Shown: one piece after another, positions 33,243 to 62,096 of the stretch | Layout: each line of letters opens with the position of its first letter | Position numbering within the stretch: position 1 is the stretch's first letter | Assembly: GCA_965213625.1 (NCBI GenBank) | Contig: CBDBZU010000004.1 | Span: 448,001-512,000 of the forward strand | Source of the DNA: a bacterium | Lineage (GTDB): Bacteria > UBA8248 | Length of the DNA: 64,000 nt | Direction of reading: 5' to 3' | Notes under the pieces: generated by a model | Seen by the model: the letters and a program-made list of their open reading frames with translations, nothing else | Databases searched by the model: none | What the model was told of the DNA's origin: nothing | Translations under genes and position numbers: made by a program

Positions 33243-33947
33243 ATGAACCCGACCCAGGCGCTCGTCGCCATCTGGCTGAACGTCGACGCAGAGCACGCGC
33301 AAGAGTTCAGAAAGTGGCACAACTGCGAGCATTCAACGGACAGGATGGACGGCCCCGGCTTCCGGGTGGGCTACCGCTACAACGCGGTGGATGCCAGCGC
33401 CGATCACAACATTCTCTGCACCTTCGAGGGAGATACCCTCGCGGCGTTCGAGAGCGATTACTACAAAGAATCGAGGGACAACCCCTCCCCCTGGACCAGG
33501 GAGTGCATGGCGTTCATCAAAAACGCCGAGCGCGCCGTGTACAGCCTGCAGACTTCCATCGGCGAGCCGCACCGCTTTGATACGCCTTATGTCTACATGG
33601 TGAGTCCCAATCCCGACACCGAGGAGATGAAGGAGGAGATGCTCGCCTGGTACCGCGAGGAGCACCTGGAGCGCCTCTATGAAGTGGAAGGCATGACGCG
33701 CGGGCGCGTGTACCAGCTGGAAACCGCCGCCACGGGCGGGGCGACGGCGGAGGCGGAGATTCAGGAGACGAAAAAGAGCGCGCGGCGCATTATCGCGCTC
33801 TACGACATGGAAGACCCGACCATCCCGGCCACGGACGCCTGGGAGGAAGCCGCCTACGGCACGCCCAGAAGCGCGGCGATGCGGCCGAATCTGGGGAACG
33901 CGGTGCGGGAGACCTGGTGGCTGGATTTTGTAAAGTGGAAGAGGTAG
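33243..33947 (+). CDS. Hypothetical protein, tandem EthD/DUF4286-like domains; 3' end duplicated at 61909-62096
   Basis: WHNCEH...PGF and WYREEHL...VEG repeats. Confidence 0.7.
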   Translation: MNPTQALVAIWLNVDAEHAQEFRKWHNCEHSTDRMDGPGFRVGYRYNAVDASADHNILCTFEGDTLAAFESDYYKESRDNPSPWTRECMAFIKNAERAVYSLQTSIGEPHRFDTPYVYMVSPNPDTEEMKEEMLAWYREEHLERLYEVEGMTRGRVYQLETAATGGATAEAEIQETKKSARRIIALYDMEDPTIPATDAWEEAAYGTPRSAAMRPNLGNAVRETWWLDFVKWKR

Positions 33948-34152
33948 CCCTGACACTACAGTGAGAAGAAATTGCTTTTGTAAAAGTGAGTAAGTATCCC
34001 AAGATGGTATGGCTTTCGAAAAGCATTGCAGTATAATGAGATCATCGCTCAGCTAAGAGATAATGGATTGCTTTCTGCATGAACACTCCACCGGAAGATA
34101 TCTAGTTTAATGATTATAGCACTTACTAAATCTCTAACTTGGAAAATATCAG

Positions 34153-35857
34153 ATGAAAATTGAATCGACAGATTTGTCTGTTGAAAAGCTCCTTACTGGA
34201 AACTATTTTGTTATTCCTAGGTTTCAAAGGCCATATTCATGGGAAGAAGATAACATTACTGACTTTTGGGATGACGTAACGAATTCAGAGATTTCTGAAT
34301 ATTTCATTGGCTCTATGGTCGTTTACGATAAGCAGAAAAACACTTTGGGTGTCGTTGATGGTCAGCAAAGACTCACGACAATTATGGTGTTTCTTTGTGC
34401 ATTAAGAGACGCGTTTCTGAATTTGGATGAAAAAGACAAAGCGAATGGCCTGCATGGTTTTATTGAGCGTAAAAATAGAGATAACAAATATATGTTTGTG
34501 CTCAAAACAGAGTCTTCATTTCCGTATCTTCAGGAGACAATACTAAAGCAAGGAAAATCCGAATTAAAATTCAACCATGAAAAGCCTGGAAAGGAGGAGG
34601 AGGCACTTGCAAAGGCGAAGGATATATTTTCGCAAAACATAATAGAAAAGTTAAAAACGATTGATAATGACCCAACGATCAAAGAGGCGGAAAAGTTATC
34701 CCATAAAATAGAATGGCTTACTTCAACAAGAGATGTAGTTCTTGAACTTAGTATCATCCTTATTACACTAGAAAATGAAGAAGATGCTTATCTGATTTTT
34801 GAAACATTAAACACCCGGGGCAAAGACCTAACACTATCAGATTTGGTTAAGAACCATTTTACTAGAAATTTGAAGAATAAAGGTGATGTGGATCATGCAA
34901 AAATTAAATGGGATGAGGTGCTTGGCACAATATTGAACTCTTCAGTGGAACTCTCGCCAGACAACTTTATAGTTCATTCGTGGCAGTCGAGATTTGAATC
35001 TGTTACGAAAGCCAAAACATTTCCTAAAATCAGAGAAAGAATCAACAGCAAAAATGCAAAAAAATATTTGGATGACTTTATCTTTGACGCGGAATGTTAT
35101 CGTAGAATTTTCGAACCAAGTTACGGATGGGATAAAAACGAATCTGACGTCGTCAAAAGCCTAGAAGCGTTTAAATTGTTCAAACTGGTTCAACCTACAC
35201 CAGCACTCCTTTCTTTAGTGCGAGCCTATAGACAAAAACAAATCAAACTTAGAATGCTGATGAGAGCACTTCAGGCAATTGAGAATTTTCACTTTAGTTT
35301 TACGGCAGTAACTTCATCAAGATCATCGGGAGGCATATCCAGCATGTATTCGTCTTTGTCGTAAGTTATTTGAGGCCTCTGATCCCAATGTTGCATCGGC
35401 TGAGATACGATCTTTGGTTACGAAGCTACGGGAACGTATTCCGCCGCCGAGCGAATTTGATGCGGCTTTTGAGCAGATAATTTACACAGCCTCTGCGACA
35501 TCGCAGCGAGCACTTGTCCGCTATATCTTGCATAAAGTGTTTGAACACGAACGTTTGCCGATACTTGGCGAATCAAACGAATTGACATTGGAGCATTTGG
35601 TTCCTCAAACGAAAATCGGGGAGACGTGGTCGGAGCAAATTGTGGGGCAGGTGGGCAATCTAATGCTTGTTGATAAAAATACAAATGAGCAATTAGGGAC
35701 AAAGCCGTTTGCGGAAAAGAAAAAGATTCTACTAGAAAATGGTTATCAAATTCCGAAAGTGTTTAAGAACAAAATTAAGCTGACAAGAGATTTAGTCACT
35801 CGACGCACAAAAGTCATCTCAGAGAGGGCCAGAAAAGAGATATGGAAGGTGTCTTGA
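34153..35857 (+). pseudogene. DUF262-DUF1524 (GmrSD-like) nuclease, frameshifted near 35355-35365
   Basis: IPRFQRPYSW, DGQQR, IFETLNTRG in first frame; RKLFEAS...EHLVPQ...GNL continues in another frame; low GC. Confidence 0.82.
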
Positions 35858-35914
35858 ATTCCTTCTTTAGAAGATATTTTGGTCGTACTGCGATATCGGC
35901 ATCCTTATCTGCTC

Positions 35915-61700: not shown

Positions 61701-61850
61701 TTTCTCGCAGAGCCGATAACGAAGGTCGTCGCCTTGCGGAATCTGGTCTCCATCGGGATGTTTGGCTTTCAGGCTTGCACCCGCACCAAGAAAAAGCACG
61801 GTACGTTGCTCTCTAACTGCGTCAATCAGGGCTGGAGGAATGTCGACCAC
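58740..61850 (-). CDS. SIR2-like / P-loop NTPase / TPR / OB-fold defence protein (Avs-like)
   Basis: LFLGAGAS, TTNFD, KLHG, GYSISD; GPGGNGKS and LFVD; helical repeats; C-terminal GYAFL...IF beta-rich domain. Confidence 0.82.
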   Translation of the reverse strand: MVDIPPALIDAVREQRTVLFLGAGASLKAKHPDGDQIPQGDDLRYRLCEKFLNDELMEKPLNAVAAMAANEAGLTEFQRYISELFMPFEPADFHLLIPTFQWRAIATTNFDLIIERAYTSVPASQQTLVKTVKDGDNFDSRLNKETNPVGFYKLHGCIESYADLEIPLILGNEQYASYGKKRTRLYNRFRDLGFEYPIIFSGYSISDPHIQELLFDLTDSDIDRPPYYYVSPKISDFEKRYWAKLHVFAVETTFEDFLRTIDQAVPDFARAIPVNIGGGELSIRKHYRIAQPSESLSLKSFLDTDTTHVHSGLTAPSQNPSEFYHGYDNGWGCILQNLDAHRSFSDSVLVDAVLLSEEERDTTEFFMLKGPGGNGKSVSLKRIAWEAGVTYDNLVLFNEIPAGLRIEPLAEIHHLTGKRIFLFVDRVALVRDELRKLLNISRSQSIPLTIVGAERDNEWNIYCEHLERFLHQEFPVRYLSEREIQTLLNLLEQHDALGLLKNLSPEDRTRKFIERAERQLLVALHEATLGVPFEEIVVDEFRRIEPAAARNLYLDICALHQFDAPVRAGLISRAAGVRFEQFQAELIQPLENVVHVVKDNHRRDVYYRSRHQHVAEIVFNQMLPSPEDKFDLLARLIEAMNIDYSSDLETFSRLIKGRGIADMFPSIELGRLFYDRAQETMPNDSFVWHQRAVFEIQHRGGSLVQAEEAATHAFKLNSTSRSIQHTQAEIARRMANDTDDPLRKRSLRRFTREKLGGNIRQPSEYDLYTRARLAIDEFKELSNSLNVSDNTKPPNDFVEAAKETETVIQRGLQIFPESSQLLATEATFRECIAQTDRAQKTLERAFNLNPRQDWLAVRLARIYQASEDLESSKCVLKACLQDNPASKRAHLEMGRVLIKSDENDAAIDHLRRGFTKGDNNFEAQFWYARELFLQGQYDKAGELFTALHDKAPGRFRTQAAAIAERDGITIMYDCRVERKEEGYAFLKLYPFPKIIFASRADSDPIEWDKLSTRTRAKCSLAFNRRGARAISITLAS

Positions 61851-61908
61851 TTTTTGTCCTTTTTTAAGTAAATCATTAACAGAAGTAGTTCAATTTGTGG
61901 ACCCCTCC

Positions 61909-62096
61909 CTACCTCTTCCACTTCACAAAATCCAGCCACCACGTCTCTCTCACCGCGTTCCCCAGATTAGGCCGCATAGCGGCGCTCCGTGGGGTACCGT
62001 AGGCGGCTTCCTCCCAGGCGTCCGTGGTAGGGATGGTGGGGTCTTCCATGTCTAGATCGCGATGATGCGGCGCGCGCTCGTTTTCGTGTCCTGTAT
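61909..62096 (-). repeat. Inverted diverged copy of the 3' end of gene 33243-33947
   Basis: 61909-62052 matches 33804-33947 with 15 differences in 144 nt; weaker homology continues to ~62096. Confidence 0.92.

Follow-up and report, generated by a model that had tools for sequence, protein, structure and literature searches.

A variable-cassette hotspot behind a conserved gene, and an inverted relic of that gene within a nearby genomic island, in an uncultured Nitrospinota bacterium

DNA inversion switches, such as shufflons and phase-variable hsdS loci, have a dedicated recombinase, short, conserved and nearly identical repeats, and functional modules that alternate. In transformable bacteria, homology-facilitated illegitimate recombination combines one homologous anchor with an illegitimate join. 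Core defence hotspots, among them cDHS1 and cDHS2 of Pseudomonas aeruginosa and the defence-island hotspots of Escherichia coli, are fixed sites between conserved genes with varied cargo of low G+C content (GC), mostly without mobility genes. The passages of PMC10250203 concerned with such loci describe lower-GC hotspots bounded by marker genes and propose that cargo is transferred when the conserved flanks recombine homologously, leaving no element scars; those of PMC5704250 on the integrative conjugative elements ICESt1 and ICESt3, located at fda in Streptococcus thermophilus, describe accretion, cis-mobilizable elements (CIMEs) and cis-mobilization at the 3′ end of a protein-coding gene. 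Here we analyse a stretch of 64,000 nucleotides (nt) from a bacterium of the lineage UBA8248 (the window; assembly GCA_965213625.1, contig CBDBZU010000004.1, positions 448,001–512,000), in which the end of a conserved gene at 33243–33947, plus strand (gene X), recurs in inverted orientation 28 kb away. Coordinates above 64000 continue the window numbering past its end on the same 4.13-Mb contig. What is found here is of known kinds: a core-gene-flanked hotspot, and island cargo with a captured gene-end relic.

Gene X encodes a conserved protein of 234 residues, with only a weak match to DUF4286 and no name from an NCBIfam search. It is present in all 22 of the other genus genomes compared (G001–G022, making 23 with the source genome, G000), and the host gene upstream of it, encoding an HpaB-family flavin monooxygenase (31773–33227, plus strand; Pfam HpaB_N and HpaB), is syntenic with X in all of the relatives' X loci examined. 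Three copies of the X end can be distinguished: copy A, the portion of X itself that recurs as copy B (33739–33947, plus strand, with a well-kept core at 33804–33947); copy B (61909–62116, minus strand); and copy C, a degraded relic, in direct orientation, of the final ~63 nt of X (36068–36130, plus strand), which lies just upstream of the start of an ankyrin-repeat gene. A repeat search returned the arms of A (33804–33947, plus) and B (61909–62052, minus) as 144 nt long, 90% complementary and 27,961 nt apart. The first-pass annotation had reported that the last 48 codons of X recur inverted with 15 substitutions, 14 of them synonymous, and our own count agrees: third codon positions account for 12 of the 15 differences and first positions for the other 3, and the only replacement is Ala to Thr at codon 9 of the 48. 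The likeness between A and B ceases directly after the TAG, as that annotation had also noted. Upstream, their homology reaches to about 33739/62116 (209 nt, 86.6% identity), and B carries a 1-nt deletion at the exact 48-codon boundary, so that B is a frameshifted relic, covering X positions ~497–705, and not a whole-gene allele. Copy B is 88–91% identical to all X alleles of the clade, no nearer to the X of its own genome than to the others, and when it is compared with other X loci the similarity persists for ~7 nt past the stop, through a G-rich run. Copy C (63 nt, 71% identity to B) stands directly after the cassette that follows A.

Copy B lies inside a genomic island, part of which is shared with one relative, G020. 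The sequence at 48514–62395 is collinear with G020, with 92.6% identity over 51715–62395, including 279 nt immediately upstream of B (62117–62395, minus strand) that are 94% identical to an element of that genome; the match is interrupted by an insertion sequence (IS) of the IS66 family and resumes beyond it at 65766–67852. Because G020-shared sequence lies on both sides of it, B is internal to the island and marks the boundary of neither a host locus nor an element. The earlier idea that A and B bracket one unit is contradicted by this position, and also by a synteny break, found in G000 only, that lies between them. Behind B, on its strand, lies a gene for a SIR2–STAND NTPase–TPR protein of 1,036 residues (58740–61850, minus strand; 95% amino-acid identity to G020), which occurs in 2 of the 23 genus genomes, G000 and G020. 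It is followed by an intact GmrSD-like gene (56910–58583, minus strand; PADLOC HEC-06/Orf5; 91% amino-acid identity to G020), whose single protein contains both a GmrSD_N (DUF262-type, E = 1.9 × 10−36) and a GmrSD_C (DUF1524-type, E = 1.9 × 10−24) domain, the combination expected of GmrSD type IV restriction systems; it is a predicted enzyme of that class. The relic, the SIR2–STAND gene and the GmrSD gene are common to G000 and G020 at 87–96% nucleotide identity, which supports the proposal that B is an X allele from a relative travelling with its cassette. The junction at B (stop codon, G-rich run, cassette) is the same as that found at the chromosomal hotspots described below.

In G020 the corresponding element is an insertion of ~79 kb (3127589–3206842), the host flanks of which are separated by 2.2 kb in G000. 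Two integrase genes lie at one of its ends, and further along it encodes a TrwB/TraD-type coupling protein and TraG_N; these genes, together with the empty-site flanks, identify it as an integrative conjugative element. The G020 relic lies mid-element, ~37 kb from the integrase end. The G000 island extends over about 39.7–74 kb (34 kb). No conjugation gene was detected by Pfam over 64–152 kb of G000, where no search aimed specifically at a relaxase was made, and the island, being without conjugation genes by Pfam, is taken as a remnant. A third long relic, starting from X position ~453, is found in G013 on a contig other than that of its X, beside a truncated island SSB gene; it continues into ankyrin and toxin–antitoxin sequence that is 70–86% like the hotspot content of other genomes. 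Pieces of the X locus have therefore come to lie beside island genes at least twice, in G000/G020 and in G013.

The site behind X on the chromosome is a genuine core-gene-flanked variable-cassette hotspot, which spans the interval from the X stop to the ankyrin gene. Its content was tabulated for 20 loci (G000–G014, G016, G017, G019, G020 and G022), in which at least nine distinct arrangements occur. An ankyrin gene stands directly behind the stop in G016 and G019, and within ~260 nt of it in G010, and additional ankyrin genes follow X in G003, G004, G017 and G020. The split GmrSD gene described below is found in G000, and a methylase–HNH gene in G001. A gene on the opposite strand encoding a NUDIX-like protein of 451–456 residues lies directly behind X in G008, G011 and G022, and behind an uncharacterized open reading frame (ORF) in G014; in G022 it is joined by AbiV as a second cassette. 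Genes for Gp49/HigB-like toxins are found further along the hotspot in G008, G011 and G012. The remaining loci have small or uncharacterized ORFs (G002, G005, G006, G012 and G013) or unrelated genes (G007 and G009) behind X. Downstream of X an ankyrin gene is present in 16 of the 20 loci; none is found in G001, G007 or G009, and G014 has only a fragment. The 451–456-residue protein, which matches NUDIX weakly and no PADLOC model, is a candidate for an accessory or defence function.

The first-pass annotation had proposed that the X end is a docking site for defence cassettes. Tabulating the gene after the stop in relatives revealed no constant neighbour, and the contents differ widely across the 20 loci, so the hotspot itself stands. 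PADLOC or Pfam defence matches occur in only three of these loci (GmrSD in G000, AbiV in G022 and methylase–HNH in G001), ten hotspot proteins of relatives having been put through PADLOC. In this respect the X site differs from the core defence hotspots, since ankyrin paralogues and uncharacterized ORFs dominate its content. It differs from them also in bearing scars, in the form of relics of the left flanking gene's end.

Similarity between loci ends within a few bases of the X stop, after the G-rich run, which in uninterrupted loci serves the ankyrin gene as its ribosome-binding region. Orthologous 63-nt relics of the X end, all preceded by one and the same element resembling repetitive extragenic palindromic (REP) sequences and followed by the ankyrin start, are present in G000 (copy C), G004, G006, G008 and G022. 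In G022 a further relic, of 139 nt, separates the two cassettes, and the NUDIX cassette of this genome is homologous to that of G008 up to the first bases of the 139-nt relic. The 3′ ends of the relics are constant, whereas their 5′ ends vary, falling at X positions ~453, ~497, ~566 and ~641, so that they have no common crossover point. Neither the interval between A and C nor the cassettes examined in relatives contain an integrase; A and C are direct copies, but they span only a 2-kb cassette. The haplotypes at the 3′ end of X do not follow cassette type.

In G000 the hotspot is occupied by a low-GC cassette (34153–35857, plus strand; GC 0.36–0.42 against about 0.61) that occurs in this genome only, 1 of the 23, and holds a GmrSD-like type IV restriction gene identified by Pfam and PADLOC. 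The N-terminal part (34153–35364, GmrSD_N) and the C-terminal part (35414–35857, GmrSD_C) are in separate frames, with open frames that overlap at 35312–35364, and match positions 1–382 and 403–529 of the 530-position PADLOC Orf5 model; a single frameshift therefore splits the gene. The earlier statement that each copy is followed by co-oriented, low-GC defence genes is correct as to their identity and arrangement (GmrSD-like behind A, SIR2 and then GmrSD behind B), but the gene behind A is broken. A scan for terminator-like sites between X and this cassette found none, and promoter and terminator scans at both junctions gave no excess over shuffled controls. The right edge of the cassette is formed by a multicopy REP-like palindromic element (35915–35947), and contig depth over 35882–36015 is 7–10 times that of the flanks. 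REP-like palindromes of the GTCATTCCGGC...GCCGGAAT type lie both here and at 30930–31072. The right flank of the hotspot is the conserved ankyrin-repeat gene (35842–36753, plus strand; Pfam Ank from residue 172), whose orthologues in relatives are 69–91% identical. As listed, this ORF spans both the REP element and relic C, and the true start of the gene is probably near 36139, as judged from an alignment.

The 28 kb between A and B are composite. Immediately beyond the ankyrin gene, at 36777–36840, lies the synteny breakpoint peculiar to G000, which joins the ankyrin gene to a group of host genes (36843–39150, plus strand) comprising a small ORF, a class I/II aminotransferase and a short-chain dehydrogenase. 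In relatives the aminotransferase–dehydrogenase pair is located at least 85 kb from X or on other contigs. In 8 of the 15 genomes with enough sequence (G003, G004, G005, G006, G011, G012, G017 and G019) the ankyrin gene is directly followed by a block equivalent to G000 148267–164435, in the same orientation, from which it follows that about 111 kb intervene in G000; the part of this sequence at 75–146 kb holds core genes. In G011 the aminotransferase–dehydrogenase pair and the cytochrome c′/Lhr genes are 8 kb apart, indicating that the island sits in an old host neighbourhood that was moved beside X in G000. One large inversion was considered as the source of this geometry and rejected, because the ankyrin flank and the 148-kb block both keep the orientation seen in relatives; with both flanks unchanged, the 111 kb behave as an insertion or translocation. 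Between A and B, then, lie the dead 2-kb cassette and the ankyrin gene, followed by translocated host genes (2.3 kb) and island sequence (22 kb).

We regard it as probable that two separate and ordinary things share sequence here, namely a hotspot at the X end and a relic, B, carried as island cargo. On this account the ancestral locus would have consisted of the X stop followed within ~25 nt by the ankyrin-gene start, and low-GC or paralogous cassettes would later have been set between the two in most genomes. Some of these acquisitions may have left a 5′-truncated X-end relic ahead of older content, either through recombination that was anchored by homology in X and closed by an illegitimate join at its far side, or through a Campbell-type insertion of a circle bearing an X fragment. 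A process resembling homology-facilitated illegitimate recombination would explain both the fixed 3′ and variable 5′ ends of the relics and the G022/G008 junction, and the relic pattern fits an integrase acting at a fixed core less well than it fits either of these two routes. We infer further that part of an X locus from a relative, beginning at X position ~497 and taking in the stop, the G-rich run and the SIR2–STAND cassette, became cargo of a conjugative element. The nearness of B to X and its inverted orientation would then be products of where the island and the host segment now lie, following the rearrangement in G000.

Several observations weigh against this account. In none of the genomes or metagenome contigs examined does a full-length X directly precede the SIR2–STAND cassette, and all ten metagenome homologues of the SIR2–STAND protein (39–73% amino-acid identity) were without X or a relic upstream, as they were without a nearby GmrSD partner (0 of 10). 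With the SIR2–STAND gene confined to G000 and G020 and never behind a full X, the case for capture is carried by the relic and its junction. On a contig of 4.13 Mb, a distance of only 28 kb between B and X would arise by chance in about 1.4% of cases, for one random placement, and the nearby rearrangement is the one explanation at hand. The last 144 nt of B, which are better preserved, match the G020 relic at 124 of 144 positions and chromosomal X alleles at up to 131 of 144, and the G000 and G020 relics are 87% identical while their flanks are 94–96% identical; B could have exchanged sequence with resident X genes and so be more than a passive relic. The excess divergence of the relic, however, is no greater than the third-position divergence of the neighbouring GmrSD gene (11.6%; 7.9–11.6% across neighbouring genes) and is also compatible with neutral decay. 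Finally, a single ancient tandem duplication spanning the X end and the ankyrin gene could account for the 63-nt relics equally well as a cassette insertion.

Among the rival explanations, one takes the 3′ end of X as the attB site of an integrase-bearing element that supplies a replacement gene end, with decayed, CIME-like cassettes accreting there in tandem and B being an internal attachment (att) site left when an element captured a cassette on excising through outer att copies. The tandem direct relics that part the cassettes in G022, the relic that five genomes have ahead of the ankyrin gene and the conjugative element that bears a relic with a cassette behind it all accord with this proposal, and the passages of PMC5704250 on ICESt1 and ICESt3 give precedent for accretion, cis-mobilization and capture at a target-gene end, including tandem cassettes split by copies of a gene's 3′ end and an element with a captured neighbour and an internal site copy. 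The X site, unlike that system, has neither a constant crossover, given the scattered relic 5′ ends, nor an integrase tied to it, as none lies in any hotspot cassette examined, and the elements found here integrate elsewhere: that of G020 sits at another site, with its relic far from the integrases. In G000, about 11 copies of the island backbone are accompanied by one X relic only. Nor do A and B have the layout of an att duplication, being inverted, with B away from any boundary and the crossover position inconstant. In the vicinity of A, B and both ends of the island, scans for transfer RNA (tRNA) genes and Rfam families gave no match; their one hit was a tRNA-Pro at 2375–2451. Site-specific integration at X is judged unlikely. 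We rate as quite unlikely the alternative that the element-borne relic is a portable and active homology arm, by which RecA would dock island cargo behind chromosomal X through single or double crossovers and pick up hotspot cassettes, so that hotspot and conjugative element trade cargo without a dedicated integrase and, in G000, the interval occasionally flips. The two independent island-associated chunks of the X locus (G000/G020 and G013) would suit such exchange, as would the allele-like character of the 3′ end of B and the distribution of substitutions: 9 of the 22 sites that differ between B and the G020 relic have both states among X alleles, the 3′ 144 nt of B contain 1 shared derived site compared with 4 in the 65 nt upstream, and the last 65 nt of X in G000 are 0.85 identical to G020 but 0.95–0.97 to G002, G011 and G012, with the reverse in the rest of the gene. 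These numbers are small, however, and the divergence is compatible with neutral decay; moreover, no genome has an island docked directly behind X, and X 3′ haplotypes, as noted, do not follow cassette type.

The first-pass annotation had also raised the possibility that a 28-kb block with A and B as its arms is invertible, and that its flipping would swap the defence cassette behind the X operon. As in an inversion switch, the repeats here are inverted and contain a coding-sequence end, whose downstream neighbour would be exchanged by a flip; a crossover within the 144 nt would leave X intact but for one Ala/Thr change, and the gap between X and the cassette is free of terminator-like sites. 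Unlike in such switches, the repeats are only 90% identical, the geometry is confined to one genome and one of the two alternatives is a broken gene. The longest perfect identity between A and B is 31 nt. Simulations that kept the number of differences and their codon positions reached this length in 27% of cases, so that it is unremarkable for 15 differences and gives no sign of recent exchange. In G000 and G020 alike, the sequence downstream of B runs straight into SIR2. Inversion would divide the island and turn host genes around, and no dedicated invertase is evident. The inverted arrangement is missing from G020, where the relic shares its strand with the full X at a distance of 1.5 Mb, and from G013, and the meaning once attached to it finds no support in these comparisons or in the frameshifted A-side gene. 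Over 32800–36800, contigs from four public sequencing runs end or start at the shared 31-mer (33830–33858), which is compatible with either orientation. Active inversion is highly improbable. Those unitigs, being built from short reads, cannot bridge the shared 31-mer, and an assembly artefact might on that ground be suspected. The contigs of all four runs nevertheless reproduce the A region without variants and contain B with its own flanks, which speaks against a chimeric assembly, and the same relic–cassette junction is present in an independent genome, G020. Chance similarity would have to account for 129 of 144 matching bases with a codon-position pattern, far beyond expectation, and neither artefact nor chance is a credible source of the repeat. 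In the same runs, a contig of 574 nt (61998–62571) covering the upstream side of B and the IS66 junction has depths, relative to the X contig, of 72/66, 31/132, 14/41 and 44/87, that is 0.23–1.1 times; possible reasons are that some members of the population lack the IS insertion or the island, or that there is admixture of a related strain.

The island begins with two tandem tyrosine integrases (39882–42321, plus strand), 73% identical at the nucleotide level to the G020 integrase pair, which lie behind host genes at about 6 kb from A and 20 kb from B. The first integrase (39882–41149) is broken by a perfect 89-nt tandem duplication at 40238–40415, which splits it into ORFs 39882–40586 and 40349–41149, and the second (41146–42321) is intact. 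The span of the first minus 89 nt is a multiple of three; the duplication may have arisen very recently by mutation or reflect an error in long-read assembly. Between the dehydrogenase and the integrases, a multicopy repeat at 39158–39430 has dozens of copies per genome throughout the genus and resembles miniature inverted-repeat transposable elements or REP sequences, and another at 39666–39900 recurs upstream of other integrase copies. Downstream of the integrases lie a cupin gene, a gene for a solute-binding protein and a transposase fragment, and then the backbone module, made up of SSB, DUF4326 and a YAcAr/SLOG protein (48538–51280, plus strand). On contig C4 of G000, copies of this backbone are found, for example, at 42–55 kb, 200 kb, 325 kb, 948 kb, 1.716 Mb, 1.969 Mb and 3.48–3.52 Mb, and a fuller element with conjugation genes is located on the same contig at 4.076–4.111 Mb. 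Further cargo common to G020 is a DUF1156-type DNA methyltransferase-like gene with an overlapping ORF of 367 residues (53498–56693, plus strand). The IS66-family element (62396–64000, plus strand, continuing to about 65710) is multicopy in the genus: G013 has 13 copies, G008 has 3, and G000 has one more besides this, at 81% identity. Its unit comprises a long transposase ORF and then an ORF of 290 residues that matches Pfam DruA (E = 3.6 × 10−37) and no PADLOC model. Past it, the defence cargo of the island goes on, with 66143–71611 holding AbiEi/AbiEii and a full Gabija pair (GajA, E = 2.9 × 10−210; GajB, E = 1.5 × 10−179), followed by an IS110-family transposase and then by core genes, from cytochrome c′ and Lhr onwards.

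Upstream of the monooxygenase, a polyamine cluster on the minus strand (27310–30198) encodes an arginase-family, agmatinase-like protein, spermidine synthase, a pyruvoyl-dependent arginine decarboxylase and S-adenosylmethionine decarboxylase, with a helix–turn–helix–cupin regulator next to it. An ORF of 187 residues nearby (26343–26906, minus strand) has a GC of 0.43 in a background of 0.6 and no Pfam match, and is possibly a small foreign insert.

No new regulatory or switching mechanism is revealed by this locus. If our account of a hotspot and a separate island-borne relic is true, the locus provides a clean case of hotspot cargo reaching a conjugative element together with a recognizable piece of the flanking core gene, in the setting of an uncultured, apparently sponge-associated member of the Nitrospinota. 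Such relics would then be usable as tracers of the chromosomal origin of island-borne defence genes.

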